From a virus, in the IMG/VR virus record IMGVR_UViG_3300047444_000198, positions 1 to 64,000 of that record: a stretch of 64,000 bases of DNA; one strand, given 5' to 3'. Positions 26,728 to 56,453 of the stretch are shown here, one piece after another (positions within the stretch are counted from its first letter, which is position 1; each line of letters begins with the position of its first letter). A program made the position numbers and the translations under genes. The notes below the pieces were generated by a model. The model worked only from the letters and a program-made list of their open reading frames with translations. It was not told the origin of the DNA and made no database searches.

Positions 26728-26728
26728 C

Positions 26729-35476: not shown

Positions 35477-37021
35477 TCACCCCTCCCGGTAGCTATCGAG
35501 CAGTGCGGCGGCGATGCTGTCGTCGTCCAGGATCGTGGTCGCTGTACCGTCCAGTACGGTGCCAGTCACGGCAGCCTTGTCATTGAGGATCGACATGAGC
35601 CGTTCATCCACCGTCGCCACGCCATTGGTACCGAGCATGATGTGGCTCACGACCTCGCGAGTCTGGCCGATACGGTCTAGGCGATCCTCGACCTGTTGTA
35701 GGTCTCCGGGCGTCCACGGTAGCTCCGCGACGACGATATGACGGGCCGCCGTGAGCGTGAATCCCACGCCAGCGGCGACGATGTTCCCCGCCAGTACCCG
35801 GGCCTTGCCTGACTGAAAGGCGTCTACGGCAGCTTGTTTCTGGACCGTGGAATCGTTCCCTGTGATGGTCACGGCGCCGAACGCCTCGACCATGGCGCGG
35901 ATCGTGTCGGTATGCGTGGCGGCGATGAACACTTGCTCGCCCTCGTCCAGGAGCCCTTGCACGTACTCGACCACGGCCGCGACCTTAGCCTGGCCGATAA
36001 GGCGCCGCAGGGTATTGAGCAGTACCAGAGCCTCAGCCTTGCCTGCGGACTCAGCAGCCTTGTCGCCACGCTCGCCCCGCACGTAGGCAATCAGGTCATC
36101 TTGCGCCCGCACGTAGTCACGTGCAGCCGTCCCGGCCATGGCGGTCCCGACACTGATACGGCCCTTGCCTGGCAGCGTGAGCACTTCCGAACGCAGGCGC
36201 CGCAGGTAGAACGTGGAGACCATGGTCTCGTGAAGCTCACTCAGGTACGCACTCCCACGCGTGCCCCACCGGTCCAGTACCGGACAGTAGCGATTGAGGA
36301 ACGACCACCAGCCGCCGAACACATGATCGACGCCCGCGATACGTAGCTGGGTGGCTAGTTCACTGGGCCGGTTGACGATAGCCGTGCCACTCATGAGCAC
36401 CCGCAGTGCACCATGGGGGAGCGTGGCGGCGAGCGCCATGGCGGCACGTGCGCGTTGTGCCTTGTATGACTTGAATCGATGCGCCTCGTCTACCACCAGG
36501 GCGCGGATGCCCATCGTGGTCAGTACCCCGTTCACTACGTCACGTGACTTCCCGGTCCGCTGGTCAGTCACCTTGACCAGACCGGCCCACTTGCTGAGTA
36601 CAGCGTCACCGATCACGTAGAAGTCAGCGTCGGCAGGCAGCACCGGCTTGGTACCAGTCAGCACCACCACGCGGGCACCCGGCACCAGCCGCACAATCTC
36701 GTTCCGCCAGTTGAGCGTGAGGCTAGGGGGACACACAACGAGAGCCGGGTACGTGCTGGGTGCCAGCGCAATGGCGGCGATGGCGGCGAACGTCTTACCC
36801 AGGCCCATCTCGTCGCCGACGTAGCTACCGCCGAACCGGGCGACGTCGGCATGGATGCGCTGGACTGCCTCGACCTGGTGGTCAAGGAGGGGCAGCGCGA
36901 GAGCCGTGAAGTCGAACGACGTCGTAGCGGCGATGGCGGTGGCGGCGACGACGGTAGGCAGGGCCGCGCTAGGCGTGGCGGCGAAGAATGCGGACAGGGC
37001 GTTAGTGGGTGCGTTGGTCAC
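35477..37021 (-). CDS. SNF2-family (HARP/SMARCAL1-like) helicase
   Basis: GDEMGLGKT, VVCP, VVDEAH, MSGT, RRL, GVGFTLT, WTP...QVEDRLDRIGQ. True start likely GTG 37021 (leaderless). Confidence 0.92.
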   Translation of the reverse strand: MTNAPTNALSAFFAATPSAALPTVVAATAIAATTSFDFTALALPLLDHQVEAVQRIHADVARFGGSYVGDEMGLGKTFAAIAAIALAPSTYPALVVCPPSLTLNWRNEIVRLVPGARVVVLTGTKPVLPADADFYVIGDAVLSKWAGLVKVTDQRTGKSRDVVNGVLTTMGIRALVVDEAHRFKSYKAQRARAAMALAATLPHGALRVLMSGTAIVNRPSELATQLRIAGVDHVFGGWWSFLNRYCPVLDRWGTRGSAYLSELHETMVSTFYLRRLRSEVLTLPGKGRISVGTAMAGTAARDYVRAQDDLIAYVRGERGDKAAESAGKAEALVLLNTLRRLIGQAKVAAVVEYVQGLLDEGEQVFIAATHTDTIRAMVEAFGAVTITGNDSTVQKQAAVDAFQSGKARVLAGNIVAAGVGFTLTAARHIVVAELPWTPGDLQQVEDRLDRIGQTREVVSHIMLGTNGVATVDERLMSILNDKAAVTGTVLDGTATTILDDDSIAAALLDSYREG

Positions 37022-37028
37022 GAGAGAA

Positions 37029-37085
37029 AGCCTATCAGGTAGTTGAGTCAACAGGTGGTCAGGAGGCATAGGCCATTCGGCCTAT
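37029..37085 (-). promoter_or_regulatory. Promoter cassette P1 (SNF2)
   Basis: AGGCC-GAAT-GGCCT dyad, GTTGACTCAAC, TAGGCT, 7 nt, GTG (dyad-to-box spacing longer than usual). Confidence 0.75.
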
Positions 37086-37094
37086 TTGCCCTGG

Positions 37095-37985
37095 TCAGGC
37101 GTGGTGCATGGGGTACTGCCCACGGTAGTCCGGCGTGCTCGCGAGGCACGGTTCCCCCACGGTCTCGACCAGGTTGGCACCACACTCGGCGCACGCTTCC
37201 GACAGGATGGCGTCCACGGTCGTGTAGCTAGGCGCTACCACCTTTCCGGACGGACGGGTCACGGGCCGACCGAGCACGTCGGCAGCTTCCTCATAGGTGG
37301 GATACCACCAGCCGTGACGGGCGGCGCACTTCGGGCCGTACCCGGCCGCGAGGGACCTGTCGTCGTCAATATCAAGTCCGCAGTTACAGCAGAAGCCGTG
37401 CAGCTTCCCGAACGCGGACGCTTCCTCCTGGCTCATGGCATGGGCGACGCCCTCGCTCACGTAGCGCTTGACGATGGCGACACCACCCCGCACGTAGTCG
37501 AACGTGCGCCCACGGAGCACCTTGCACGCCTGATAGCCGTTCTGAGTCGTGTACAGCTTCCACACCGCGGACCCATCGTCCAGCGTGTAGAGACCGTTAT
37601 CGAGCACCAGGGTAGCGGCGGCGACCGTAGCCGCATCCGCCACGGCGCAATCGCCCTCATGATGGAACGTGAGCCACTTCCCGGTGCTTGACTTCTGAAT
37701 CCACCCAGCACCGGCCGGAACGTTCCCCTTGCACGTCTGGCACTTTCCGGGGTAGCCGTTCGACCGTTTGGCCGGAGCGGTAGCCGTGGCGGCGACAGTG
37801 TTCTTCATGCCTAGAAGCGCCTCGATCATGGCGCTAGCCGTGCCGGACTTCCCGCCCGTCAAGGTGCTCTCTAGTTGCGCCATGGCGGCGGGGACGTCAT
37901 TGATCCCGGTCTGGTCGGCGGGGATCTGCTGGAGCAGCGAACGGATGAAAGAGATCTGCTTAGGGGAAGCCGGTGCGTTGGTCAC
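37095..37985 (-). CDS. DUF6011-domain zinc-finger protein
   Basis: C-terminal CCNCG..I.DDRSL..GYGPKC; internal NGYPGKCQTC; N-terminal ASPKQI.FI. Confidence 0.75.
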   Translation of the reverse strand: MTNAPASPKQISFIRSLLQQIPADQTGINDVPAAMAQLESTLTGGKSGTASAMIEALLGMKNTVAATATAPAKRSNGYPGKCQTCKGNVPAGAGWIQKSSTGKWLTFHHEGDCAVADAATVAAATLVLDNGLYTLDDGSAVWKLYTTQNGYQACKVLRGRTFDYVRGGVAIVKRYVSEGVAHAMSQEEASAFGKLHGFCCNCGLDIDDDRSLAAGYGPKCAARHGWWYPTYEEAADVLGRPVTRPSGKVVAPSYTTVDAILSEACAECGANLVETVGEPCLASTPDYRGQYPMHHA

Positions 37986-37992
37986 GATCATG

Positions 37993-38050
37993 AGTCTAGG
38001 CGCTTTCTTAGGGTCCCGTATGGGCCATACGGCCCTTCTGTTGACTCACC
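37993..38050 (-). promoter_or_regulatory. Promoter cassette P2
   Basis: GGTGAGTCAAC, GGGCC-GTAT-GGCCCA, TAGACT, 7 nt, GTG. Confidence 0.75.
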
Positions 38051-38427
38051 TTAGGAGGGGCGGCGGGCCGTCACCACCAGGGGCACCGCGAGACCGTGCG
38101 CCACAGGGCGCCGCAGGCGTCCGGAGCACGTGTCGAACGTGGTCACCAGCACGTGGTCACCACGGTCCTCGACCTTGTGGACCGTGGAGACGTGCGCGAG
38201 CACGTCCCCCGGCCGCAGGTCACCGGCCAGCACAACCGTGCTCACGCCGTCACCTCGGCGTTGCGGCGCGCACGCCGCAGCTTGTCTTGCAGGCTCATAG
38301 CCTCAGCGGCCAGCGTGGGCCAGGCGTTGGCCTGGCAGTTGTGCCACTCGCTCGACAGGGCGAGGATCAGCGTGCTCATTTCGCCCGCTGTGAGCGTGAT
38401 CGTGGTGGGTGCGTTGGTCATGAGAGT

Positions 38428-38471
38428 ATCTTACCTCCAAGAGTTGAGTCAACAAATAGGCCATTCGGCCC
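38428..38471 (-). promoter_or_regulatory. Promoter cassette P3
   Basis: Dyad, GTTGACTCAAC, TAAGAT, 6 nt, ATG. Confidence 0.8.
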
Positions 38472-39130
38472 TTTGGCTCCAAGCTCCAAGGGCTAGCCCT
38501 CCCACTCACTGAGGAAGGCCAGCACGTCAGCCGTGTCCTGTGACGTAGCTCCAAGCACGCGCCCTGTGATGGTGCACGCATCGCCCGCACCGGTCACCGC
38601 GTACAGGTCGCCTCCAAGGTCGTAGAGCACGTGGAAGTTGTACGCACACATGAAGTTGCGCGATACGAAACGGCGGCGCAAGGCAGGCGTGACAGGGACG
38701 TCACGCTCGATCCGCGGCCAGGCGTCAGCCGGGAAGGGCCGCAGGTCCAGGTCCAGCATCACGGCACACGGTTGGCACGTGGGCACGTCACCCAGGATCG
38801 GATGCGAGACCACGCCCGCAGCGGGGCGCACGCACCGGGCGAACCACTTGCACGTGGTCACTTGACCGGCTCCAAGGGCGCCGATGCGAACAGGTTGCTT
38901 GCGTAGTACACGCGTCGCGACTGGTCGCCGTCCCGGTCCAAGAACCGAAAGCCCTTGTAGTTGCCGGTGTCCATGAGCACGTCCTCGATCATGCCAGCGA
39001 CCGCGTAGCGGGCCTGCACCTGGTCATCGGCCGAGTTGGCGAGCATGTTGTTGGCGAAGTCGAGCACGCGCTTGACGTTGATCGTCTTGCGAGCCTTGAC
39101 GTTGGTGCTGGTCGAGTAGGGCATGAGAGT

Positions 39131-39174
39131 ATCTTACCTCCTTGTTGACTCAACTACTATGGTCCATTAGGCCC
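39131..39174 (-). promoter_or_regulatory. Promoter cassette P4
   Basis: Dyad, GTTGAGTCAAC, TAAGAT, 6 nt, ATG. Confidence 0.8.
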
Positions 39175-39732
39175 TGCTTCTGGCGCTCGTACACAGCGCT
39201 GGGATGTTGTGCCATGGCGCACGCCCTGCACACAGAGACACCACCCATGCGGGTCGTAGCCTCCTGTGAGCACGGACGCAGCCACTCGTCAGACGACTGG
39301 CAGGTCACCGGTACACCACCCGGACCTCACGAGCCTCTAGGCACTCCTTGACTGTGAAGTCAGCGCGCACCCGGCCACCCTTGTGAGCGAGGTTGTAGCC
39401 GACAGCGAACGTCGTGATGCCGCGGTTCTGTAGCACTCGGATGGCCGAGAACGTAGGCAGCGGTTGGCCGATGTGGTCGGACCAGCCGAGACCGGGGTAG
39501 AACACCTGTTCGATGCGAGCATCGCTCGCCCTCGTGTTGAGGTTCCGACGCGACAGGTGGCGACGGATGGGCAGCGGGGGAGTGTTGTGATTGGTCATGA
39601 GATGGCTTTCATCTGCGTGATGGACCGGCGTGCGCTCTTGCGGCCGGGATGCGGACAGGTGACGATCGCGGTGGGCGAGCACACACCGATGGTGTGCTGG
39701 CAGGTCGGGCACTGGTAGGTGGTCATGAGTAC

Positions 39733-39776
39733 AGCTTACTTGACTGTTGACTCAACACCTATGGGCCATTCGGCCC
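39733..39776 (-). promoter_or_regulatory. Promoter cassette P5
   Basis: Dyad, GTTGAGTCAAC, TAAGCT, 6 nt, ATG. Confidence 0.8.
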
Positions 39777-40218
39777 TAGCTACCGTCAGCACGTGAGCGA
39801 AATGTTGGTGCAGCCGGTCAGCAGCGCGCAGCGCCGCGGCCTCGTTAGCCTCCTGTGAGACCAGGGACGAACGAACCGCCAGGCCGGTCGAGTCGAGCGT
39901 GACAAAGCCGACGTGGTAGCTCACGGTGCCACTCTCGTAGGTGATCGAAGCAGCATCGATGATGCCACCTGGTACGTCGTAGGTCACCAGTGTGGTGTAC
40001 GTGCTCTCAGTCATCCCTCGCCCCACGTCTGCACCACGTCACCGGGGAGCACGCGGAACGTGCCACCGCGGATCGTGCCGAAGTCGATGGTCAGCCACTT
40101 GCGGCCGACGATGGTCACGGTGCCGAAGCACACCACGCCGAACATGGCGGGATGGAAGGCCTCGACCGTGTCACCGACCTTGAAGTCGGAGAGTGTGAAG
40201 GTGGTGGTCATGGTGTCC

Positions 40219-40262
40219 ATTCTAGTGAGTAGTTGAGTCAACAGCTATGGGCCATTCGGCCC
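40219..40262 (-). promoter_or_regulatory. Promoter cassette P6
   Basis: Dyad, GTTGACTCAAC, TAGAAT, 7 nt, ATG. Confidence 0.8.
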
Positions 40263-40483
40263 TAGAGCAGACCCTCGGACGTAAGCAGCTTCACCAGGTC
40301 CGCGAGTCCACCCTCTAGCTCCGTGGCATGCGAGACGAACGCAAAGCGCTCACCGAACGTGAAAGCAGCGTTCACGAAGCAGCAGCTACCCCCGGCCATC
40401 ATGCCGACGTGGCCGATGGCCTTGCCCTCGCGCATGATGGCAGCGCTGGACTTGTTCTTGCGGCGAAGCGTCAACATGGTACC

Positions 40484-40527
40484 AGTGTACCGGACGTGTT
40501 GACTCACCACCATGGGCCATTCGGCCC
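40484..40527 (-). promoter_or_regulatory. Promoter cassette P7
   Basis: Dyad, GGTGAGTCAAC, TACACT, 6 nt, ATG. Confidence 0.8.
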
Positions 40528-40550
40528 CTTATCTGGTGGTACCAAGTGCT

Positions 40551-40681
40551 GTCAGTGTCAGTGCGCTCGTCGGACCGTAGCGAGCACCGCAGGCCAGGGC
40601 ACCACCCCCAGACTCGGTCCACCATGTGGCGACAGGGGACCAACCTGGTCGCTACGGCCCGAACAACGCACTGACACTGAC
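40551..40681 (-). ncRNA. Candidate structured RNA (33-bp imperfect terminal stem built on two 13-mers)
   Basis: 29/33 inverted repeat; two mismatches become G-U pairs on the minus strand; internal CCAGG/CCTGG and TTGGTCC/GGACCGA stems. Confidence 0.5.
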
Positions 40682-40990
40682 GGTCTAGAGCCCTTCCTCG
40701 TTGGCGAAGCGCTGCATCATGTTGACGCAATCGTCGCGGTAGCGCTCAGCAGCACACCACGCACTCTCGCCCTTGAACGTCTTGCCTCGCGGCCACGTGG
40801 TGGCCCACTCAGGGCGCTTGGAGACGCTGACACGGTGGGCGCCATCCTCGTAGCGGTAGCCACCACGTGAGTCGAGCAGCGGCCCGGTCTCGATCTGCAC
40901 GGCGCCGATGCGTGAGCCGTAGTAGCCGTTCACGTTGGTGCGGGCGATCGTGCTCCAAGGGCCTGGTGTGCTGTAGCGGGTCATGGGATC

Positions 40991-41034
40991 AGTCTACCGA
41001 TCCTGTTGACTCAACGCATGAGTCATTCGGCTCA
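40991..41034 (-). promoter_or_regulatory. Promoter cassette P8
   Basis: TGAGCC-GAAT-GACTCA, GTTGAGTCAAC, TAGACT, 6 nt, ATG. Confidence 0.8.
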
Positions 41035-41528: not shown

Positions 41529-41572
41529 AGTCTACACTCTCTGTTGACTCAACGCCTGAGTCATTCGACTCA
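41529..41572 (-). promoter_or_regulatory. Promoter cassette P9
   Basis: TGAGTC-GAAT-GACTCA, GTTGAGTCAAC, TAGACT, 7 nt, ATG. Confidence 0.8.
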
Positions 41573-42440: not shown

Positions 42441-42484
42441 AGTCTACTCCAAGAGTTGACTCAACACATGGGCCATTCGGCTCA
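42441..42484 (-). promoter_or_regulatory. Promoter cassette P10
   Basis: Dyad, GTTGAGTCAAC, TAGACT, 7 nt, ATG. Confidence 0.8.
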
Positions 42485-43126: not shown

Positions 43127-43171
43127 AGTCTACCTCCCTCTGTTGACTCAACGCCTGAGTCATTCGACTCA
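43127..43171 (-). promoter_or_regulatory. Promoter cassette P11
   Basis: 35 bp identical to P9; TAGACT, 6 nt, ATG. Confidence 0.8.
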
Positions 43172-43710
43172 TCCTCAGGCTTCCAGTTGAACGGGCGACT
43201 GAGGCTCAGCTTGCCTGCGTTCACAAGCTGCTGGATGGCACCAGCGGCCTCGTCCGAGACGTTGGCCTCACGGATGACGTGGAGCAGGTAGGCAGCGTCC
43301 AAGGCCCGACGACGCTGGGTAGCGGCCCTCTGCTCAGCCTGTTCGGCCTCAAACTTGGCACGCTGGGCGCCGATGCGCTTCTGGTAGGTCTCGAAGTCAA
43401 CGACCTGGCGCTTGTTGACCAGGTAGTACTGACCCTCTCGGTAGGTGCTCGGCTCACCCTGAGCCTTGTCGGCCTCGACCGTCACGACCAGGACGTAGTC
43501 ACCGCCCCGCGACTTGTAGCCGTACCAGTCCTCGATGGACTGGCCTTGCCTCATGTGGACGGGGCCGGGACCACTGCCACTCATGTTGGCCCGAACGACG
43601 CGCACGGTGGTCCACTGCGACTTGTCGGCATCCCAGCCAGTGCGGCCGGAGCGGTTGATCAGGGCGTAGACCTTGCGGCCCTCCCACATTTCCTCGTATT
43701 TCATGATGTA

Positions 43711-43765
43711 AGTCTACCTAGTTTCGTAGGGTTCGGGAATGGGTCATTCGGACTGTTAACTCAAC
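43711..43765 (-). promoter_or_regulatory. Promoter cassette P12
   Basis: GTTGAGTTAAC upstream of the dyad; TAGACT, 6 nt, ATG. Confidence 0.75.
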
Positions 43766-44570
43766 ACCCTCCAAGGGTGTCAGTGTCAGTGCCTCACCAC
43801 GGCCCGCACAGACCGTGATACCGCTCGGTCAGGCCGGAGCCGTCACAGATCGACCAGCGGTAGCGGTAGACCTCGCCCTGGGCGATCGGCCCGGAGCAAT
43901 CGTCGCACTGGTACTCCTTGCGGGCACGCTGTAGGCGTGTCACCACCAGGACCGTGCCGACTTCCTCGTCGTGATGGACCCGAAGCTCGCTCATCCGTAC
44001 GCCTCCATGATGGCAAGCTCGGCCTGGTACTTGACCAGAGCCTCGGCCGCACCCTTCGCGAGCCGGTTGTAGGCATCAGCGGCGCGGTTGACGTTCTGCG
44101 TCAGGCTCGCCCGACGTGCACCCTCGGCATGTGCGGCCTCGTCGCGCAGGTAGCGCTGGACCGTGGCCTCGACCGCCTCCAAGAGGGGCCGCACGTACGT
44201 CTTGGGCGCTCCACCCATGGCTCGGGCTAGCTCGTAGTCCACCGTGCCGTCCTGGGGGATCACGCCGTAGACCTGGCTGTTGCTGTCGCCCTTGGCGTCG
44301 CGCTCGGCCTGGTTGCGGGCGTACCAGTAGCCCTTGGGCTGGCCCTGGTCGTTGGTGTGGATGTACCGGATGGCGTACTCGTTGCCCCGGTAGACCAGCG
44401 TGCCCTCTACGAACACGTCATCGGTGCTCATGGCACACACCATGAGTCCACCGGTCACCTTGCCGTGGTTCACGTCCATCTGGACGTTGGCGACCCGCTC
44501 GTGCCACTCGGGCACCGGAACGGAGAGGGGGAGAGTTTCCTCAATGTCGTAGGTCTTGGTCATGAGCACA

Positions 44571-44614
44571 AGTCTACGCTTGTTGAGTCACCACCGCATG
44601 AGGCAAACGGACCA
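44571..44614 (-). promoter_or_regulatory. Promoter cassette P13
   Basis: Degenerate dyad, GGTGACTCAAC, TAGACT, 7 nt, ATG. Confidence 0.75.
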
Positions 44615-45318
44615 TTTCGTCAGGTTCCGTGTCAGTGTCAGTGGCCTCGATGGTGGGATCACCGTGCAGAGCAAACGTGTGCTCGCAAGGCTCACCCTTG
44701 GGCGGGGCGAACATGATGCGCTCCACGTCCAGCCGGTCGAGAGCATCCAGCAGAGGCACGCACGCCGTGACCATGGCACCCAGGATGAACAGGGCGCCGA
44801 TCATCGCCGCGACCTTGTGCGTGCCCTCCGCGAAAGCGCCTGTGTACACGTAGCCGCCGACCGTGAACAGGACACCGGTAGCGCCCATCCAGCACCAGAA
44901 GCGTTTGCGCTGGCTCATCGTGCGTGCACCGGGCAGTGCTTCCCCTCGTCGTGCAGGATGCCACCGCCCCGAAGCTCACGGCCGGTGCACAGAGACTCCA
45001 TGGCCTCAGCACACACGGCCGGATTGTCGAACGTGAGCAGGAGCGTGTACGGACGGGTGCCGTACTCAGCTTTGGCTACGAACGCCACATTGATCCAGTG
45101 CTCACGGTACCGATGCTCTTGTGTCACTCGATCAACCCCCGGTGTCGTGCTTCGCCCTCCAAGCAGTCTCGCATGAGGTCGGTTCCCCAATCCTCTCCAA
45201 GACGACGACGAAGCTGGGCGTCCGTCATGTCGCGCACGTCCAAGCCGTTGATCATGGCCTGGCCCTTACGGGGACGCTCACCGGGTCCACGTGTCTGCTG
45301 GTAGTCGCTCACGATCAC

Positions 45319-45363
45319 AGTCTACCCGCCATTGTGTTGACTCACCATGAGCCATCCGGCCCA
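45319..45363 (-). promoter_or_regulatory. Promoter cassette P14
   Basis: TGGGCC-GGAT-GGCTCA, GGTGAGTCAAC, TAGACT, 6 nt, GTG. Confidence 0.75.
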
Positions 45364-45368
45364 TCTTG

Positions 45369-45423
45369 TGGAGCACCGGGGAGTCGAACCCCGCTAGCTA
45401 CCCATGCCCCGATGGAGTGCCCC
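45369..45423 (-). ncRNA. 55-nt tRNA-like mini-RNA (Ala-type acceptor plus T-arm)
   Basis: GGGGCAC/GTGCTCC-A acceptor with G3-U70; CGGGG-TTCGACT-CCCCG T-arm; only 23 nt between acceptor and T-arm. Confidence 0.6.
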
Positions 45424-46341: not shown

Positions 46342-46391
46342 GGTTCGGCACCCTATCAGGCTCCAAGATTCATAGGGATAGGCCGTTTGCC

Positions 46392-47051: not shown

Positions 47052-47485
47052 GCCTGGCCCATGATGTTGCGGGCGTCCCGAATGAGAGTCACCAGCGTGC
47101 CCGGAGCGCCGTCAGTGGTGAAGTCGTCAGCGACGTGACGAACGAAGCTCGCAAGCTCGCCCACGTCGTACCCCTCGCTGGGCGAGTCTCCCTCGGGGCT
47201 GTCGCCGTACATGAGCCAGTTGCTCAGCGTCTCGTCCAGGTCGGTGATCTTCTCCATGGCGTCGTCGCCGTAGAACTTGATCTCACAGCCAACAGAGCCG
47301 TAGACGATGTGGAGCGTGTGACCGGTGCGACCGATGACCTCGACGCCATTGCTGGTGTAGCGCTCGGGCACGCTGGTGAGTTGAACGCTGGTGACGGTGT
47401 CCAGCTTAATCGTCTTGCGCTGGCCGAAGGTGTCCCACAGGCAGATAGCTCGGGCGTTGACGACGTAGTCGGTGTAACTGCTCAT
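47048..47485 (-). CDS. Hypothetical protein
   Basis: Leaderless from a promoter cassette. Confidence 0.65.
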   Translation of the reverse strand: MSSYTDYVVNARAICLWDTFGQRKTIKLDTVTSVQLTSVPERYTSNGVEVIGRTGHTLHIVYGSVGCEIKFYGDDAMEKITDLDETLSNWLMYGDSPEGDSPSEGYDVGELASFVRHVADDFTTDGAPGTLVTLIRDARNIMGQA

Positions 47486-47489
47486 GCAG

Positions 47490-47879
47490 TCAGTCTAGTT
47501 GCGTTGACTCAACAGCGCATGAGTCGTTCGGCTCATCTTCCAGCACGTCCCACACGTTGGTCACGAACTCGACCAGGGGCAGGATGGGATCACCGCGCTT
47601 GCACGTCCACTGCACCAGGCCCAAGCCGGTCAACCGGCGCACGTGACCTTGTACACAGGACGTGCTGAGACCGGTCCTGTCGCGCAGATCGTGAATGCTC
47701 TCCACGCCGTCCATGACATGGAACAGAAGCTCGGTAGCAGTCGGACCCACGGCCTCGAAGCCACGCATGCGCCAGTAGCCGATCTGCTGCGGTCGCCAGT
47801 TGGGACCTAGCTGCTGCGGCGCAGAGGGCGGAACTACAAGAGCCTCCGGAGAGGCAGGGTCATCCGGAGGCTCCTGCAT
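47490..47879 (-). CDS. Winged helix-turn-helix protein
   Basis: SIHDLRDRTGLSTSCVQGHVRRLTGLGLV. Confidence 0.65.
   Translation of the reverse strand: MQEPPDDPASPEALVVPPSAPQQLGPNWRPQQIGYWRMRGFEAVGPTATELLFHVMDGVESIHDLRDRTGLSTSCVQGHVRRLTGLGLVQWTCKRGDPILPLVEFVTNVWDVLEDEPNDSCAVESTQLD
47492..47535 (-). promoter_or_regulatory. Promoter cassette P15
   Basis: Dyad, GTTGAGTCAAC, TAGACT, 6 nt, ATG. Confidence 0.8.
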
Positions 47880-47886
47880 CGGTTCC

Positions 47887-47931
47887 AGTGTAGCGGCTTT
47901 GGCACCCTCTACACATGGGCCAAACGGCTCA
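47887..47931 (-). promoter_or_regulatory. Promoter cassette P16
   Basis: TGAGCC-GTTT-GGCCCA, TACACT, 7 nt, ATG; palindrome displaced to about 47962. Confidence 0.7.
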
Positions 47932-48104
47932 TTCGACTGTCAGTGTCAGTGGGCGAATCGTGATGACTCACCATGACAGGAACGTGTGTTCTTACCCCTC
48001 CTTGGGGGTGCTGCGTGGTGCAGGCTCGGGCGGCGCAGCATCGAGCACAGCATCGAGCAGTTCGCCGGGGTTGGGCAGGGGCTTGACGTCGAGCGGTTCG
48101 TCAT

Positions 48105-49358: not shown

Positions 49359-49384
49359 GCAACCGAACCGTAACACGTCACCAC

Positions 49385-51077
49385 TTACCCCTCAGCGACC
49401 AGCCGTTCAGCCTCCACGAACAGATCCAGGTCGAAGATGCGTACCAGGTGGAAGGCCCGACACAGGTCGCCGCCGTCCTCGTCAACGATGATCCGGTTGT
49501 GATCGCCCTTGACCATGGCATCGATGGCGTCGCGGCAGTCCGGGATGGCGTTGGGGCACTCCATCGCCCACGTCATCCACCACGTGAGCGCATGCTCGGT
49601 GCCCTTGAACAGGATCATCTCGGGCAGGAGTTGAGCCAGCGGGTGTTCAGTCATCCGTCCAGCCTCTTGCACGTGGCGCATTCCGGAGCATCTGATGCGG
49701 TGCCCTTCCACGTGGAGTACGTGATGAGCACGCCACACAGGGTCAGTTCAGCACCACCAGGGATACCACGGACGTGGTGAGCGGCGACGTGCTGCTCAGT
49801 TGCCAGGCCCTCGGCATTGACCGAGACGTCGGGGTAGTTGACCGTAGTCATGACGTCAGGTAGTTCACGACGATGTTGCGGGCGTCGGGCCACTCGATCT
49901 CGACCTGCTCGGCGTAGACAGCAGCCGTGATCTCATCGGAGAAGGGCACCGAGAAGTGCTCAGGCCCAGCGAAGTGCGGACCATCGATGGAGAAGGTGAC
50001 GGAGTGGGTGGGAGGCATGGTCTCAGTCTACTCCCTCTGTTGAGTCATCACCATGGGTCATTCGGCCCTCCGTGGTCTGCGCGCCATACCTCGTAACGAG
50101 CCTTGACGATCACCAGGACTGTCAGTGTCAGTGCACTCAACAGCGCGATGCGCTTCATATCGTGCCCCTGAGCATCACACTCTTGACCGTGACCGTTATC
50201 TCGGGACTCAGATCTTCGGCCTCAGCAGCGATGGCCTCGGCCAGAGTGTTGATGTTGAGCGTCGGCTCGTCAGGATTGGGCGGCTCGTGATGCACCACCC
50301 GCAGCGTCACCTCGTACTCGTAATCGTGCGCCTTCATGCGTACGGGCCGCTCGGATTGTACGGGCGCACCGTCACGTCACCAGGCTTGTCCCACACCACG
50401 GTCCCTGATTCCAGGTCCAGGATGTACGGGGCATTGTCCCACGTGGGCGACTCCATCCAGTCGGTGAGCCGCAGAGCATCGTCAGGCGCGAAGCCCTGAC
50501 GCTCCATGGTGCGGCGAAGGGACGCCCGCCGCCATGCCTTACGAAACGTCTGACGCTTGCCCATGCTCTGTCCCTCTCGTCTCTTTGACCCACCCTGCCC
50601 ACCAGGACAGAGCATCGTACAGGTTCGGTACCTCGGGGAAAGTCTCGGGGTGACCGAACCAGGTGGAGCGGACCACGCTATTGCCGTGCACGTCGTAGCC
50701 CTTGAAGATGGCGACGTAGTCACTGGTCGTGACCGTCTTGGCCCGGTGGAACAGCGACCGGCGCACGTCCACCAGCCACGCGTACTCGTAGTCGAAGTCA
50801 GCGAACGCCTGTACCCACATCCACGTGGTGTCGTCCACTCGGGTGCCCTCGGCCGGTTGCACGGCAGCCAGCTTGTTCAGGATGCCCGCTAGCTCGTCGT
50901 TCACCAGATCGGTGCCGTGGATGGCCCGACGTTGGGCCGCAGTAGCAGTCATCACCGCCCCAATCTAAAGACGGTGATGACGAGAGCGAGCAGAGAGACC
51001 GGACGGACCCGCCGCTGCTCACGGTACCGGAGCGCTCGGGGCTGCTTCCGCAGCCGCATGGGAGGCATGGGGAGCAT
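49385..51077 (-). other. Small hypothetical CDSs (49385-49654, 49651-49851, 49848-50018, 50155-50337, 50334-50564, 50539-50952)
   Basis: Mostly coupled start/stop overlaps; 49848-50018 starts leaderless. Confidence 0.55.
50025..50068 (-). promoter_or_regulatory. Promoter cassette P17
   Basis: Dyad, GATGACTCAAC, TAGACT, 6 nt, ATG. Confidence 0.8.
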
Positions 51078-51880
51078 CAGACGGCCACCTTCCCCTTGTT
51101 GGCGTTGATGGACGCCATGAGGTCGGACAGGAGGTCAGGACCGGACGGCTGTGCGTCAAGGACCACCGCAGGCTCGACACCCGCCGCCTTGTTGTCCACG
51201 TAGGTCTGGATGGCCTGCGACGTGGTATCGACCAGTACCGGGGCGCTCACGCCCACGCTCTCGATCAGCGCCAGAGCAAGGTCGCTCTCCTGCTTGCTCA
51301 CGGTCGCCGTGGGCAGATCGATGGGCTGGCGGATGGCGTCGGCCGTGACCACGTACCGGAGGTCCCCGGCGCAGTCCAGGATGGCGTACCGGGCCGGTCC
51401 CCGCATGGCGAGCTTCACCAGCGCGACCACCTTGCGCTCCTTCATGGCAGCGAGCAACAGCGTCAGCGCCTTGACACCGGACGGGTCCGACTTGCCCTTC
51501 ACCCGGCGTGGCCTGATCTGGTACAGGCCTTCCGTGAGGTACTGGCCCAGGTTGCGGGTCTGGATGAACGTCTCGATGACGGCGATGCCCTTCGGCATGG
51601 TTGCGTCAACGATCTCGTCGTCGTCCAGCGTCACCCACGCACCGGACGTTGCCTCAGCACGGCGCACCACGTCAGCGCGATCGATGATGACACCGGTCGT
51701 CTTGTTGGTGAGCGCACGGCCCACCGGCTGCCAGGCGCCCTCAGCGTCCTTGGTGAACTCCTTGCGGGCGATCCGCACTTCCTCGGTGCCGGTGTAGGCC
51801 GAGACCGGAATGTTGAGCAGACCCCAGGAGATGGTGAAGGAGGTTGTGGCCCGGTTGGGAGTGGGGGCGATTGCTTTCAT
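51077..51880 (-). CDS. ku: Ku-like DNA end-binding protein
   Basis: ISWGLLNIPVSAYT.TEE N-terminal motif; LL.AM......ALVKLAMR; DL...LMAS C-terminus. Confidence 0.88.
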   Translation of the reverse strand: MKAIAPTPNRATTSFTISWGLLNIPVSAYTGTEEVRIARKEFTKDAEGAWQPVGRALTNKTTGVIIDRADVVRRAEATSGAWVTLDDDEIVDATMPKGIAVIETFIQTRNLGQYLTEGLYQIRPRRVKGKSDPSGVKALTLLLAAMKERKVVALVKLAMRGPARYAILDCAGDLRYVVTADAIRQPIDLPTATVSKQESDLALALIESVGVSAPVLVDTTSQAIQTYVDNKAAGVEPAVVLDAQPSGPDLLSDLMASINANKGKVAV

Positions 51881-51886
51881 GTCTCT

Positions 51887-51930
51887 ATTCTACTCTTTCC
51901 GTTCCTTGTACGTATGGGCCGTTCGTACCA
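51887..51930 (-). promoter_or_regulatory. Promoter cassette P18 (Ku)
   Basis: TGGTAC-GAAC-GGCCCA, TAGAAT, 6 nt, ATG; no palindrome. Confidence 0.7.
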
Positions 51931-51944
51931 TTTGGTACCGCCCC

Positions 51945-52991
51945 TCACCCGAATGGTGAGGGGCTGTCGGCGAAGTTGTCGCCAGAGCCAGTGAGCGGGT
52001 GCCGGTTGTCGGCAGCGTTCGCGATCAGGCCCTTGAACGACCGGGACTCGACAATCTCATCGAACACCAGTTTCTCGTCGGCCGTGAACATGGAGCGCAG
52101 GACGAACAGCGCCATGTCAACGCCATCCTCGATCACGTCTGAGCAGACCCGCATGAGCGCGCTGGTACCAACTGGCGTCCGGATATGGCCGGTGGCCCTC
52201 GCCTGGCGCAGAGCGTCACCCAGCGTGCGAACCGCATCGTTAGGGATCAGCCGGTGCTCGACCGTGGGATCGTAGGCCCATTCCAGGTGCCGGAACCGGT
52301 TGGCGAAGGCCTCATTCAGCGCACCCGCGCCCCGGTAGTTGGGGTTCATGGTGCCGACGATCCACAGGTCGGGACTGATGTGCACGGTCTCAGGCATGAA
52401 GCCGTCGCCGGGGACCTTGACGGCCTTGGCCCGGTTGGTGAACGAACGCCGCCAGTCGGCCATGGGATGCAGGGAGGACGTGACCCGCTCCGGCATCATG
52501 TTCACTTCGTCCAGGTAGAAGATGCCGCCGATCCTGGCAGCCATGTCAGCGATGCCGGGGAGCCAGACGATCTGCTCCTGGCCGGTCTCGGGATTGGTCC
52601 AGGCCGTGGGTTGACCGAACATGTCGAAGTCGGTGATGCCGTTGCTGGCCGAGAGGGTGAACACCGGGACCGGGAGCACCTTGCCATCACGGTTCAGGCC
52701 CATGGCCTCCCCGATGTGGATGGCGAGGACGTTGACGAGCATCGTCTTGCCACCCTGCGTGTCGCCCACCAGCAGGACGTTCTCCCGGCTGGCCCACTTC
52801 GCCAACAGGTACTCGACGTCAGTCTTGCCATTGGGCAGCTTGCGACTCACGTACTCCTGCACCAGCGCCGGATCGGGCCGGAACATGTCGAGACGAGGGT
52901 CATCGATGGTCAGCGCGACCGATTCCTCGTGCGTCACCGTCAGGTGGCGGGGAGCGGTGCGCTTCATCACTTTGGTGGGCTGCTCGGTCAC
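51945..52991 (-). CDS. MoxR/CobS-like AAA+ ATPase
   Basis: Walker A GDTQGGKT, Walker B FYLDEVN, TMNPNYRG..LNEAFANRF. Confidence 0.9.
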   Translation of the reverse strand: MTEQPTKVMKRTAPRHLTVTHEESVALTIDDPRLDMFRPDPALVQEYVSRKLPNGKTDVEYLLAKWASRENVLLVGDTQGGKTMLVNVLAIHIGEAMGLNRDGKVLPVPVFTLSASNGITDFDMFGQPTAWTNPETGQEQIVWLPGIADMAARIGGIFYLDEVNMMPERVTSSLHPMADWRRSFTNRAKAVKVPGDGFMPETVHISPDLWIVGTMNPNYRGAGALNEAFANRFRHLEWAYDPTVEHRLIPNDAVRTLGDALRQARATGHIRTPVGTSALMRVCSDVIEDGVDMALFVLRSMFTADEKLVFDEIVESRSFKGLIANAADNRHPLTGSGDNFADSPSPFG

Positions 52992-53021
52992 TGTCGTCCT
53001 CTCGTCTCAGGTTCGATGCCC

Positions 53022-53164
53022 ATTCTAGCAAGGTCCCGTACCAGGTGCATGGGCCGAAAGCACCATTCTGTTGACTCACTACTCTCTCACGTGTTGACTC
53101 ACCCACCACCAGAGCCGAAATAGGTCTCCCGGCCCATGTAGTGGGTACGGTACCCTGCTAGACT
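53022..53164. promoter_or_regulatory. Divergent promoter pair P19/P20 (AAA and vWA)
   Basis: GGCCCAT...TAGAAT on minus and GGCCCAT...TAGACT, 7 nt, ATG on plus; two GTTGACTCAC sites between them (53070, 53093). Confidence 0.75.
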
Positions 53165-53171
53165 GGTGCTC

Positions 53172-55160
53172 ATGACCGAACCAGACGCCACCCGCACGCT
53201 GCGGGACGTGAGGCGGCAGCAGGCCAGTGAGCGCCGCCGCCTGAAAGAACAGCAGCAGCGGACCCGAGAGCGGATGGATGCCGTCTCGGACAAGATGAGC
53301 ACTGAACAGGCTGAGCGCATCCGCCGCCACAACGCCGTGGTAACGGGCATGGTGCCCCGCATCACCGGGGCCGTGGACTCGTGGGCAGGCAAGCGCGTGC
53401 CCATGAACGTCCAGCACCCGGCCAGCCGGTTCTTCGCCGCTACGGACTTTGAGCGCATCACGCTCATGATCCCCGAGACCGAGACCATCGACCTGGACTT
53501 TGCGGCTGACCTGCGTGGACTGGCGTATCACGAGGCCGGACACATCTTGAAGTCGGTCCCCTTCGCCACGCTGGTCAACGCCGTCATGCCTCTCGATGAG
53601 AACGTGGCGAGCCACAGCAACCGCATGCGGAGCCTTTCCAAGATGGTCGATCTGGACCAGGACAAGCTCCACCAGGCGTGGAACGTGCTGGAAGATCAGC
53701 GCATGGAGTCGGCCATGGTGCGGGAGAGCACCAACCTCGGCCGGTACTACAACGTGATCGTCTTGGAGCACGTGCTGCACGGCGGGGTGTCTGACATTGC
53801 CTACATGTGGGTCTACGGGCGCAAGCACGTGGATGCCGACGTGCGGGCGGCGGCTCGCGCCGCCATGGTCGTCCAAGAGGGTGAGGCAACGGTCCAAGCC
53901 GCTGAGCGCCTGATCGACACGTACAAGCAGTCCAACGACCCGCTCGTCATGTGGGAGTCGGTCGTCAAGTTCGGTCAACTCATCGGGCACTGCTCGAATG
54001 GCGGCGACCTGGGCAACGGGGCCATGGATGACCATGAGGAAGCCCGCAACCCCGAACCCAAGCCGTTCGACCTTGATGAGTCAACGGAGCCGTCACCAGA
54101 GCCAGACAGTGAAGGCGAGTGCGACGGCGACGGCGGTGACGGTGAAGATGAGGAAGGCACCGGAGCGCCCGGTGGCGACGGTGACGACAACGACAGTGAG
54201 GATGACGCTGAGGGTCAAGAGGGTGGTGACACCGCTGACCGCCAGGCTCACGGCGATCCCGATGCCTTCCAAAGCGACACCGGAGCGTCCAAGAGCGTCA
54301 ACGATGCCGATTGGAGCCGCCGCCTGGTGACTGACGCTCTCAACAAGGCGAGGGAGTCGCGCAACCGGGACGGGAACGTGCTGGGTGACGTCAAGGCGTA
54401 CAACCAAGCCGTGTCCGAGGGCCGGGGGAAACTCCCGGTGGCACGCATCCCCTACACCGTAGAGCCTGACGCCATGGTGACCAGCCAGGCCGTCAAGCTG
54501 AATCAGGCTCTCCGCAACCTCATGGAGCAGGCGCGTGCTGAGTCATCGCCCACGTGGCAGACGCAGCAGCGGGCGGGCGTGCTCGACGTGCGGGCGTACA
54601 TCACCCGCCAGCCTGGCGAGATGGAGTTCTACAAGCGCTACGCCGAGGGCGGCGACATGCACCTGCCGAACATGGCGGTGAGCCTGTTGCTTGACGGGTC
54701 ATCCTCCATGGATCACCAGGCCCAGCGCCTAGCCATCGCCGCGTTCGGCGTGAAGTCGGCCTGTGACGTGGTGGGCGTGCCCTGCACCGTCACGGTCTAC
54801 GACACCGATGCGTACCTGTTGTGGGATGACGAGGATCGTCCGATGGACGTGCCGTACAACATCCTCCCCAGCGGTGGTACCGATCCGAAGCGGGTGCTCG
54901 ACCTGCTCGACATGCAGAAGTGCGACAAGGCCAACCACCTGGTCATCATCATGACTGACGGTGCCTGGTCACACCAGTGGCAGACGTCGCTCTCGCTGGC
55001 GCACTACGCCGCCGCCGACCGGGACATGGTCCTGTTCTACCTGGACTGTGACCCGGCGTACGGGCCGCAGGGCACCGACACGTGCTCGCTGGTGCAGCGC
55101 ATCGATGACCTACAGGAGATTCCCCGGTTCCTGATGCGCTACCTCGTACGGGCGATGTAA
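53172..55160 (+). CDS. CobT-like protein: HExxH N-domain, acidic linker and vWA domain
   Basis: YHEAGH, NVLEDQRME, D/E/G linker, MIDAS LLDGSSSM...GGT...MTDG; leaderless ATG 53172. Confidence 0.85.
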   Translation: MTEPDATRTLRDVRRQQASERRRLKEQQQRTRERMDAVSDKMSTEQAERIRRHNAVVTGMVPRITGAVDSWAGKRVPMNVQHPASRFFAATDFERITLMIPETETIDLDFAADLRGLAYHEAGHILKSVPFATLVNAVMPLDENVASHSNRMRSLSKMVDLDQDKLHQAWNVLEDQRMESAMVRESTNLGRYYNVIVLEHVLHGGVSDIAYMWVYGRKHVDADVRAAARAAMVVQEGEATVQAAERLIDTYKQSNDPLVMWESVVKFGQLIGHCSNGGDLGNGAMDDHEEARNPEPKPFDLDESTEPSPEPDSEGECDGDGGDGEDEEGTGAPGGDGDDNDSEDDAEGQEGGDTADRQAHGDPDAFQSDTGASKSVNDADWSRRLVTDALNKARESRNRDGNVLGDVKAYNQAVSEGRGKLPVARIPYTVEPDAMVTSQAVKLNQALRNLMEQARAESSPTWQTQQRAGVLDVRAYITRQPGEMEFYKRYAEGGDMHLPNMAVSLLLDGSSSMDHQAQRLAIAAFGVKSACDVVGVPCTVTVYDTDAYLLWDDEDRPMDVPYNILPSGGTDPKRVLDLLDMQKCDKANHLVIIMTDGAWSHQWQTSLSLAHYAAADRDMVLFYLDCDPAYGPQGTDTCSLVQRIDDLQEIPRFLMRYLVRAM

Positions 55161-55197
55161 TCGTGACTCAACACCCACTGACACTGACAGGCAGGCC

Positions 55198-55611
55198 ATG
55201 AACAGCGACACGGCAGGACTCATCCTCAACGTCTACCTCATCATGCGGCGGCACCAACGGGTACTAGCCGCTACCGGGGACAACCGTCTGGCGAACAAGG
55301 CCGCATGGCACACCTACGGGCTGATCTGGCTAGCCGGGTGGGCGTTCATCGCCCCTCTCGGCTGCCTGTTCCTGGCCCTGTTCTCACCGGGCTTCCTGGT
55401 GGCCGCAGGCATCCTCGCGCTGCTCATCCCGGTCTGGTTCTACGCCTGGTCGGCTGATCGTCGCTGGGAGGCCACGCTGAGTGCTCAGGCCATCGAACCG
55501 CCGCCGATCCCTGAGCAGTACCCCATGAGTGCCCCTGAGCGCACCATCACCCAGCCGGTGCTCACGGCGTTCTACCGGCCACCGGCCAAGCAGATCAGGT
55601 CGGCTCGATGA
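55198..55611 (+). CDS. Membrane protein
   Basis: Two hydrophobic segments. Confidence 0.6.
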   Translation: MNSDTAGLILNVYLIMRRHQRVLAATGDNRLANKAAWHTYGLIWLAGWAFIAPLGCLFLALFSPGFLVAAGILALLIPVWFYAWSADRRWEATLSAQAIEPPPIPEQYPMSAPERTITQPVLTAFYRPPAKQIRSAR

Positions 55612-55661
55612 GCCGAATGGCTCTGTCGTGACTCACCAGGAGCCGTGTATACTGAGTCAAC
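55609..55661 (+). promoter_or_regulatory. Promoter cassette P21
   Basis: TGAGCC-GAAT-GGCTCT, GTGACTCACC, TATACT, and a second TGAGTCAAC over the predicted start site. Confidence 0.75.
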
Positions 55662-55697
55662 ACAGAACCTCTAGGACAGGATGGAGCACAAGACGAG

Positions 55698-56111
55698 ATG
55701 GCAACGATTCTCAGATCGTATGACTGGTCACAGGTCAGCCGAGCCAACAAGCGGGCCAGGAGCCGGAGCTACCCCTGGGATGACTGGTTCGATGGCCGCA
55801 TCTGGCAGCTAGAGCCGAGGGTGGACTTCGATGGTCCTGCCGTCAGCTTGGAGCGGGTCATCCGGACATCGGCCAACCGTCGCGGTATCAAGGTCCGCAT
55901 CCGCATCGATGGCGACGTCGTCGTCGTGCAGCGCCATGAGGACGGCGATCCCTTCCGGACGATCACCAAGTCCCCGAGCTTGAAGTCGATCAAGGCGGCG
56001 AAGGAGGCCGAGACGAACGGCCACAAGCCCGAGCCGGTCAAGGTCTCGGCCACGAAGAAGGTCGCTCCCGCCACGCCTCGTAAGCGCGTGTTGAAGCGCG
56101 TGAGCGTCTAG
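55698..56111 (+). CDS. Putative DNA-binding protein with basic tail
   Basis: YPWDDWFDG..W.L...DF motif; K/R-rich C-terminus. Confidence 0.6.
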   Translation: MATILRSYDWSQVSRANKRARSRSYPWDDWFDGRIWQLEPRVDFDGPAVSLERVIRTSANRRGIKVRIRIDGDVVVVQRHEDGDPFRTITKSPSLKSIKAAKEAETNGHKPEPVKVSATKKVAPATPRKRVLKRVSV

Positions 56112-56146
56112 TACCACCCAGCCTCCCCTAGTAAGAGGGGGCGTGT

Positions 56147-56257
56147 AGAAGCCAGGAACCCGCAACCGCATTTGACCCGAAGCACCGCCCACCGGACTCA
56201 CAGAGTCCAGGGCACCGCTGGCAGGCACAACCGGGCGCGTAAGTGTTCCTGGCTTCT
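56147..56257. ncRNA. Candidate structured RNA
   Basis: 13-bp perfect closing stem AGAAGCCAGGAAC/GTTCCTGGCTTCT; internal GGACTC-aca-GAGTCC hairpin; intergenic. Confidence 0.45.
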
Positions 56258-56393
56258 TGCGTTGTCAGTGTCAGTGCGTGCTATGGTCCCGTACCAGGTG
56301 CAAGGGCTGTCCGATCCCTCCACCAAGGGTCGTGCTCCCCAGCTAAGGACTACCGCCAGTCCGAGACGGCCCTTGCACCTGCAAGAGTGGAGC

Positions 56394-56453
56394 GTTGAGT
56401 CAACAAGATGGGCCGAATGGCCCATGTCAGGGTGGTACCACCGGGTGTATACT
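56394..56453 (+). promoter_or_regulatory. Promoter cassette P22 (DUF3987)
   Basis: GTTGAGTCAAC, TGGGCC-GAAT-GGCCCA, TATACT. Confidence 0.75.

Follow-up and report, generated by a model that had tools for sequence, protein, structure and literature searches.

How might the many small genes in the early region of an uncultured phage be controlled as one programme? The question is posed by a 64,000-nucleotide stretch of viral DNA (the window), bases 1-64,000 of the 76,395-bp linear IMG/VR record IMGVR_UViG_3300047444_000198 (the whole record is called G000 below), which has a G+C content of ~64% and is estimated to be 79% complete. Minus-strand genes for terminase, an SPP1-type portal, a capsid protein and tail proteins occupy 1-24 kb; a long leftward block running from 53 kb to 31 kb consists mainly of orphan genes and includes those for AAA_5, Ku, SNF2 and DUF6011 proteins; and a short rightward block at 53-58 kb encodes a 662-aa protein and a DUF3987 helicase-like protein. 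The original prediction, drawn from the letters of the window, held that about 22 copies of a three-part, mostly leaderless promoter cassette at 37021-56453 organize this early region into small units under a two-input switch. Here we describe the anatomy of these cassettes, compare them with those of uncultured relatives (G004, G006, L161 and L162), and weigh what their upstream dyad and their sliding palindrome may do.

Anatomy of the cassettes

Anchoring on the -10 box, we found 22 oriented cassettes within 37,019-56,453 (P1 to P22 from left to right; one per 0.9 kb on average), and one more at 26,679-26,731. A full cassette opens with a dyad of 14-16 bp (GRGYC-GAAT-GRCYC); a TANNNT box follows after 23-24 nt, and an ATG or GTG after another 6-7 nt. 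TANNNT is present in 22/22 units, and a start codon follows 6-7 nt past the box in 19/22, the same count as had been predicted. These 19 leaderless layouts comprise 18 units on the minus strand and one on the plus strand (53172); the remaining three are leadered, one leftward at 53.0 kb (P19, 53,022-53,064) and two on the plus strand (55610 and 56410). Cassettes point in the direction of their genes and flip at 53.1 kb, also as foreseen. The box reads TAGACT in 11 copies, and all 11 TAGACT hexamers of the 76,395-bp record are cassette boxes in the correct orientation. The TAG with which the box begins doubles, in most copies, as an in-frame stop at -12, so that an upstream start is impossible and the open reading frame (ORF) can start only at the cassette ATG. 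A Shine-Dalgarno-like 4-mer precedes 5/19 cassette starts and 24/45 other starts, a weakly informative difference. Some cassettes sit inside the 3' end of the preceding ORF, and the majority of cassette genes have no Pfam or PHROG match.

The dyad is held at a nearly constant distance from the box. Its consensus, GRGYCGAATGRCYC, had 28 matches at two or fewer mismatches, compared with 8.0 ± 2.8 in shuffled sequences (maximum 17); it was never found away from a promoter, matches elsewhere being at chance level. Thirteen copies have a gap of 24 nt between dyad and box, eight have one of 23 nt, and P1 alone has one of 35 nt; a gap of 23 nt tends to be paired with a 7-nt box-to-ATG spacer, a gap of 24 nt with one of 6 nt. 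Through these compensating spacings the dyad centre comes to lie at -43.5 from the start codon in 15/21 copies. Pairs of sigma-70-type -35 and -10 boxes occur in the region at chance level. The nearly fixed spacing (measured here as 23 or 24 nt in 21/22), the longer gap in P1 and a centre near -43.5 without a -35 box were all elements of the original prediction, and all were recovered.

The second element is an 11-bp palindrome, GTTGASTCAAC, which is matched 31 times in the window with no more than one mismatch (12 exact and 19 with one mismatch), where 0.9 ± 0.9 are expected. In 14 copies it is centred between -23 and -29; P2, P12, P22 and the leftward 53.0-kb promoter (P19) have it upstream of the dyad (-56 to -61), P21 has it at -4, and P16, P18 and P20 lack it. 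The upstream positions in P2, P12 and P22 and the absence from P18 had been recorded before, and P19, P16 and P20 extend that list. Because the distance of the dyad is fixed while the palindrome slides, the two elements are independent of one another. The palindrome has a single base as its centre and hence makes no useful hairpin. Two other identities were considered for these motifs and rejected: the palindrome as a -35 box, since its TTGAST half lies 9-15 nt from the -10 box and is too close, and GANTC methylation sites in dyad and palindrome, GANTC being neither avoided nor enriched.

A third type of palindrome (GGGTAC-G-GTACCC, GGTAC-N-GTACC or GGTGGTACCACC) is found in the spacers of P22 and of the divergent promoter pair at 53.0-53.2 kb. 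Members of this palindrome and repeat family at replication-gene promoters lie at 53033-53050, 53143-53155, 56285-56303 and 56430-56441, and the palindrome is kept at the G004 orthologue of the 662-aa gene; an 18-mer that is present twice, GGTCCCGTACCAGGTGCA, belongs with this family. As a result, the proposal of a two-input switch stands insofar as there are two independent elements, but the number two is a simplification.

Two further repeats accompany the cassettes. A 13-mer, CACTGACACTGAC, has 24 exact copies in the window and 26 in the whole record and is often found just upstream of a cassette dyad (examples are the minus-strand copies at 40551, 43779, 44631, 47939 and 50121); past the window it forms inverted pairs at 66211/66228 and 70538/70565 of G000. 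Variants occur in relatives, CATTGACACTGAC and CATTGACATTGAC in G004 and CATTGACATTGAC in G006, which marks the 13-mer as a conserved, co-varying feature of the family. In addition, the same first 14 nt, (A/G)TGACCAACGCACC (encoding M/V-T-N-A-P), open three unrelated neighbouring genes, at 37019-37021, 37983-37985 and 38419-38421, indicating that cassette homology reaches into the first codons.

Conservation and turnover in related phages

Related uncultured phages were found by protein-guided searches, with DUF3987 homologues occurring on 37 contigs. For one of them, G004, the record (118 kb) is complete and has terminal repeats; its DUF3987, AAA_5 and SNF2 proteins are respectively 67%, 78% and 69% identical to those of the window. 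The early genes of G004 are preceded by the same dyad family (GRGYC-GAAW-GRCYT), and leaderless starts are kept in the orthologues of the 99-aa gene (P8), the DUF6011 gene (P2), the 190-aa gene (P13) and the SNF2 gene (P1); the layout of P20 is likewise conserved. The palindrome of G004, TGTT(C/G)TGACAACA, is unrelated to GTTGASTCAAC. Where it sits in the spacer, the gap is 33-34 nt, the usual value in G004 and one helical turn longer than in G000; without a palindrome in the spacer the gap is 23-24 nt. At the P8 orthologue, homology runs through the end of the upstream gene and the dyad, is lost at the spacer and comes back at the box and ATG. That G004 keeps the dyad, swaps the palindrome and adds one helical turn to the gap is a second reason to regard the two elements as independent, as had been claimed, and wholesale replacement of the palindrome between relatives is what is expected of an operator co-evolving with its binding protein. 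At four or more places, cassette-bounded units follow one order in G000 and another in G004; the two genomes have diverged too far for breakpoints to be mapped, and the apparent reordering of units at repeats fits modular shuffling.

More distant versions preserve the plan and change its parts. G006 has a dyad of another sequence, 14 bp long (GTGACA-NN-TGTCAC), at 34-35 nt from a TAGAMC box, and a palindrome of its own, GGTTCCGAACC. At 20.8-27.2 kb, G006 (L153-L155) has six cassettes in which the ATG follows 6-8 nt after a -10-like box whose last base is C (cctgaTAGAAC or cctgaTAGACC); such an ending is unusual for a primary-sigma -10 hexamer. L162 and L161, whose AAA_5 proteins are 48-52% identical, have an oriented element, CTGAGAAATC, that precedes the box by 34-36 or 45-47 nt, two spacing classes that are one helical turn apart, together with operators of their own lineage. 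The arms of this element are often unpaired and its sequence is conserved, although at the position equivalent to the dyad L161 also has one perfect 10-bp stem with a GAAA loop. Judged from these sequences, the recurrent features of the family are an upstream oriented element at two distances one helical turn apart, fast turnover of the operator, and a -10 box that is often fused to the start codon.

Beyond this family the cassettes were not recovered. In its portal protein the phage shares 59% identity with the Streptomyces phages Alone3, LuckySocke and BRock, and by this measure Alone3 and BRock are its nearest cultured relatives; megablast of 8-kb pieces gave no DNA relatives among cultured phages, and the Alone3 genome has no such cassettes. 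Exact cassette patterns gave single chance matches only in IMG/VR and JGI metagenomes, with no second genome carrying these sequences, and the cassettes match no Rfam family.

Possible roles of the dyad and the palindrome

With moderate confidence, we take the cassettes to be leaderless, -10-only promoters for the host polymerase that carry a dyad site of Mor/C geometry and, separately, a lineage-specific operator. Each cassette would be a -35-less promoter for host RNA polymerase with its primary sigma factor; a phage sigma factor was looked for in the record and none was found. A TANNNT box 6-7 nt before the start codon implies that most units should give leaderless mRNAs, with transcription probably starting at the ATG itself. 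Attached to the box would be two separate, putative protein-binding elements. The dyad has a 5-6 bp inverted repeat on either side of an oriented GAAT/GAAA centre, and its position is held at -43.5 or a full turn of the helix beyond. Its most likely partner is a dimeric factor that touches RNA polymerase where a -35 box acts, like Mor and C at Mu promoters, and this factor would be an activator. The palindrome GTTGASTCAAC would be the operator for a second, lineage-specific DNA-binding protein, and given its location over the -35/spacer region its simplest role would be repression, shutting off the units jointly during the lytic programme. The repeated cassettes probably also act as homology patches for the reshuffling of gene units. 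The integration or partition functions of a temperate immunity system were not encountered, neither a tyrosine nor a serine recombinase being found in G000 or the complete relative G004, so that a role in lysogenic immunity is unlikely and a lytic-cycle switch more likely.

The precedent for the dyad comes from phage Mu, where Mor and C bind a 16-bp imperfect dyad made of two 5-bp inverted repeats and centred at -43.5 in -35-less promoters (PMC4390567, PMC2582627). The Mu promoters, like the cassettes, lack a -35 box, have a recognizable -10 box and are used by host polymerase, as we propose here, and an imperfect 16-bp dyad at -43.5 of a -35-less promoter is the arrangement found in 15/21 copies. 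They differ in number (five in Mu, 22 or more here), and the phage studied here has an actinobacterial-type host, predicted leaderless mRNAs, an added second operator and, within its family, a second spacing class one turn further out. It also has no Mor/C homologue, since PF08765 gave no match in G000, G004 or G006 beyond noise inside the terminase gene. The second spacing class resembles the Ogr sites of phage P2, near -55. With regard to the promoter proper, the geometry of actinobacterial -10-only leaderless promoters, the type named in the original prediction, is matched exactly: TANNNT, 6-7 nt to the start site, the A or G of the start codon as predicted start, and no Shine-Dalgarno sequence. 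What sets the cassettes apart from ordinary leaderless promoters is that one stereotyped version recurs and that two regulatory elements have been added to it.

Several observations weigh against this interpretation. First, none of the four candidate regulators encoded in the window (two ribbon-helix-helix (RHH) proteins, a winged-helix protein and a WhiB-like protein) could be assigned to the dyad or the palindrome. Second, if all 22 promoters need a phage-made activator, something else must start the programme, and no independent immediate-early promoter was clearly identified in a record that is 79% complete; moreover, -10-only promoters in Actinobacteria often work without an activator. 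Third, the arms of the dyad show compensatory changes (GGGCC/GGCCC vs GAGTC/GACTC) and its centre is conserved and oriented, GAAW being present in 20/30 copies from G000 and G004 together; such covariation around an oriented centre is no less characteristic of hairpins than of dimer sites. Fourth, the regularity of the spacing could come partly from the common descent of the copies. Finally, 16 one-mismatch palindromes lie outside the early region, where 1.0 ± 1.4 are found for composition-matched palindromes, and such sites away from promoters suggest that the palindrome binder may do more than regulate initiation. Eleven of these are in the window (1148, 14576, 15157, 19148, 23806, 25944, 26511, 32681, 60414, 60965 and 62273) and five beyond it in G000 (67857, 68534, 70606, 73624 and 75687). 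Several of the outside palindromes sit at gene junctions of late operons.

The GAAW centre, the covariation of the arms and the perfect stem in L161 are the reasons why the main rival that we retain is a stem-loop. In that case the dyad, as RNA or extruded DNA, would attenuate or end upstream transcription or stabilize a 3' end, and together with the promoter would form a portable recombination linker, leaving only the palindrome as a protein operator. Its model is the promoter-early stem-loop (PeSL) cassette of T4-type phages, a unit of promoter plus stem-loop that shuffles ORFans (PMC2839356). There, too, many copies of a promoter and a G/C-rich inverted repeat border small orphan genes, provide them with their own expression signals, and, as may be the case here, are reordered as units between relatives; in G000 the cassette genes are mostly orphans, some cassettes lie inside the 3' ends of upstream ORFs, unit order differs from that of G004, and the dyad pairs G+C-rich inverted arms of 5-7 bp, which show double-sided changes, around 4 nt (GAAT/GAAA) that keep one orientation. 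Nevertheless, we consider this explanation unlikely. The mean folding energy of the dyads is -7.9 kcal/mol, modestly beyond the -4.8 ± 2.9 of random windows of the same size; the stems are short (5-7 bp), there is no U-tract, and five copies are unable to fold. The non-Watson-Crick pairs in the dyads (three G-U on the sense strand, seven on the antisense strand and eight others) show no sense-strand bias, and in L162 and L161 it is the sequence of the equivalent element that is conserved while its arms are often unpaired. A role in upstream RNA would leave the -43.5 position, the 23+7/24+6 compensation and the one-turn spacing classes unexplained, whereas a fixed distance despite differing spacer contents, compensating spacers and quantization by one turn argue for recognition of duplex DNA in register with the polymerase. 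PeSLs, furthermore, combine full -35 and -10 boxes with AT-rich sequence upstream, a leader that carries a Shine-Dalgarno sequence, and a stem-loop of variable position; the cassettes described here have a -10 box only, a fixed dyad, leaderless starts and a separate sliding palindrome, and the phage is not T4-like. Two narrower versions were rejected: the dyad as an intrinsic terminator, because its stems are weak, it has no U-tail and terminator-like sites in the region are at chance level, and strand-specific RNA pairing, because G-U-type mismatches are divided between the strands. The case for a pure RNA hairpin or terminator is weak.

A second alternative dispenses with the activator. Dyad and palindrome would both be negative operators, for two repressors or for one complex, or the dyad would bind a host nucleoid or regulatory protein, and the promoters would fire unaided and later be silenced. 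Leaderless promoters with only a -10 box are common and active in Actinobacteria; the same genome has at least two leaderless promoters without a dyad (24474, minus strand, and 28559, plus strand); and the two RHH proteins encoded downstream belong to a family of classic repressors. Multi-site operators are, in addition, well known in actinophages: the cluster O actinobacteriophages, which are non-temperate and, like the phage studied here, have no integrase, carry a dispersed 17-bp dyad repeat (PMC4351075), which the palindromes outside the early region resemble, and cluster M phages have CR1-CR4 repeats with stem-loops (PMC7953290). Such systems share with G000 dozens of copies of one short protein-binding repeat, some of them at leaderless SigA-type promoters, and many copies of one short putative operator are indeed dispersed across this genome. 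Further multi-site operator systems are the cluster A stoperators and the phiC31 CIRs. Stoperators are asymmetric and serve a lysogenic repressor, unlike the palindrome, and cluster O repeats, unlike the cassettes, are mostly away from promoters; none of the cluster O, cluster M, cluster A or phiC31 systems pairs a phase-locked dyad with a movable palindrome at each promoter, and their sequences are unrelated to those found here. We regard the alternative as rather unlikely, since a repressor site normally needs no fixed distance or helical phase relative to the -10 box, and the palindrome in fact keeps none, while the change of the dyad between relatives (G006, L162) argues against a conserved host factor.

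It is quite improbable that the GAAW element is touched directly by polymerase or by a bound adaptor, without a free dimeric activator, whether as an UP-like subsite for the alpha C-terminal domain (~-42 proximal, -52 distal; UP-element geometry is summarized in PMC4390567) or as a docking site for WhiB and sigma region 4: within the element only the centre (-45 to -42) is A/T-rich, the genome being 64% G+C, the spacing classes at -43.5 and ~-54 match two UP subsites one helical turn apart, the conserved part in L162 and L161 is the oriented GAGAAATC and not the arms, and the WhiB-like protein is well kept in G004, but the G+C-rich arms hold most of the information of the dyad in G000 and G004, an UP element of three or four A/T bases would be a poor one, and the G006 dyad has no such centre.

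Individual cassettes, neighbouring genes and wider meaning

P1 to P19 are on the minus strand. P1 (37019-37083; SNF2 helicase), with the sole 35-nt gap, has its dyad at 37070-37083, palindrome at 37042-37052, TAGGCT at 37029-37034 and GTG at 37019-37021. In P2 (37983-38050; DUF6011 protein) a palindrome-like site at 38040-38050 precedes the dyad at 38022-38035, TAGACT at 37993-37998 and GTG at 37983-37985. P3 (38419-38471) and P4 (39122-39174) share a TAAGAT box, with dyad, palindrome and ATG at 38458-38471, 38443-38453 and 38419-38421 in the former and at 39161-39174, 39144-39154 and 39122-39124 in the latter. P5 (39724-39776; dyad 39763-39776, palindrome 39746-39756, TAAGCT, ATG 39724-39726) precedes a gene for a 43-aa four-Cys zinc-ribbon-like protein. 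It is followed by P6 (40209-40262; dyad 40249-40262, palindrome 40232-40242, TAGAAT, ATG 40209-40211) and P7 (40475-40527; dyad 40514-40527, palindrome with one mismatch 40498-40508, TACACT, ATG 40475-40477).

From P8 through P15 the box is always TAGACT. Dyad, palindrome and start codon lie at 41020-41033, 41005-41015 and ATG 40982-40984 in P8 (40982-41033; 99-aa gene); at 41558-41571, 41543-41553 and ATG 41519-41521 in P9 (41519-41571), which is within the 3' end of the upstream ORF; at 42470-42483, 42455-42465 and ATG 42431-42433 in P10 (42431-42483); and at 43157-43170, 43142-43152 and ATG 43118-43120 in P11 (43118-43170), which is within the 3' end of an upstream 195-aa ORF. P12 (43702-43765) has a palindrome-like site upstream (43755-43765), an imperfect dyad (43741-43754) and ATG at 43702-43704, and P13 (44561-44613; 190-aa gene) an imperfect dyad with loop GTTT (44600-44613), a palindrome (44582-44592) and ATG at 44561-44563. 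P14 (45310-45362) combines a dyad at 45349-45362 and a palindrome at 45336-45346 with GTG at 45310-45312, and P15 (47483-47534) a dyad at 47521-47534 and a palindrome at 47503-47513 with ATG at 47483-47485. Between a 13-mer copy and P14 lies a tRNA-like element (45370-45423, minus strand) with a sub-threshold Rfam match to mascRNA-menRNA (24 bits, E 0.88) and no ARAGORN call; the only ARAGORN tRNA call is a tRNA-Pro at 20040-20114.

P16 (47877-47930; dyad with loop GTTT 47917-47930, TACACT, ATG 47877-47879) has no palindrome and precedes the gene for a 129-aa MarR/ArsR-like winged-helix protein. P17 (50016-50068) has a dyad at 50055-50068, a palindrome with one mismatch at 50039-50049, TAGACT and ATG at 50016-50018, and P18 (51878-51929; Ku-like protein) an imperfect dyad at 51916-51929, no palindrome, TAGAAT and ATG at 51878-51880. 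The leadered P19 (52989-53103; AAA_5 gene) has two palindrome-like sites upstream of an imperfect dyad at 53051-53064, a GGTAC-type palindrome in its spacer, TAGAAT at 53022-53027, and a 30-nt leader with a Shine-Dalgarno sequence before GTG 52989-52991. On the plus strand, the leaderless P20 (53116-53174; 662-aa gene) retains only the proximal half-dyad (GGCCCAT), with palindrome GGGTACGGTACCC in the spacer, TAGACT at 53159-53164 and ATG at 53172. In the leadered P21 (55610-55700) the dyad at 55610-55623 and TATACT at 55648-55653 are followed by a half-palindrome, GAGTCAAC, over the start site, the gene beginning at 55698; on the function of its product, a basic 137-aa protein, the ESM Atlas was uninformative. 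P22 (56394-56501; DUF3987 helicase-like protein), also leadered, has a palindrome at 56394-56404 upstream of the dyad at 56410-56423, TATACT at 56448-56453 and GTG at 56499. The additional plus-strand cassette at 26679-26731 joins dyad GGGTCGAAAGACTC (26679-26692), 24 nt, TACAAT (26717-26722), 6 nt and ATG 26729, has no palindrome, and precedes the gene for a 372-aa protein (phrog_15934).

Three of the candidate regulators are encoded on the minus strand downstream of P1: the WhiB-like protein (33328-33600; 66% identical in G004), an 84-aa RHH protein whose tail is basic (33617-33871; no homologue detected in G004) and a second RHH protein (34368-34586; 46% identical in G004). The fourth, the winged-helix protein (47490-47879, minus strand), is 36% identical in G004, where its recognition helix differs, and its promoter is without palindrome in both genomes; a trace of the protein through the relatives, meant to connect it with one kind of operator, turned up orthologues in G004 alone. 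In public annotation this gene begins at an internal Met (P0038, 92 aa, 23 contigs, the longest of 119 kb), 37 codons short of the leaderless ATG, and leaderless starts in this phage family are probably mis-annotated systematically. Outside the cassette units, a 452-aa protein (58188-59546, minus strand) matches the queuine tRNA-ribosyltransferase family (phrog_887, E 5e-27) and is kept in G004 and G006; it looks DpdA-like, a hint of 7-deazaguanine modification in the phage DNA.

The cassettes are known in kind and represent no new mechanism, as repeated phage promoter-operator cassettes, PeSLs, Mor/C-type promoters and actinophage repeats have all been described. What is new is that leaderless promoters combine a phase-locked dyad with an operator that slides and is swapped between lineages, and that one spacing rule holds across the family. 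A broader form of the interpretation that we favour, host-polymerase promoters with a docked activator and a separate operator, can be put forward only tentatively: large high-G+C uncultured phages may share a grammar for early and middle genes in which a GAAW element at -43.5 or one turn further out recruits polymerase via an activator other than Mor/C or via a WhiB-sigma complex, and the swapping palindrome is the off-switch of each lineage. More than 20 leaderless promoters would then be under an activator-AND-NOT-repressor gate that doubles as a shuffling joint.

With more than 20 copies in one genome and diverged versions in relatives, the cassettes are an unusually clean natural data set on high-G+C promoter architecture, each joining a -10-only leaderless promoter to one phase-locked and one free-sliding putative protein site. 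They also carry a lesson for annotation, as public gene calls miss leaderless starts such as that of the winged-helix gene. If the resemblance to Mor/C sites is borne out, the cassettes would supply compact, orthogonal, switchable promoters for the engineering of Streptomyces or Mycobacterium, and activation at -43.5 of promoters without a -35 box would have arisen independently in actinobacterial phages.

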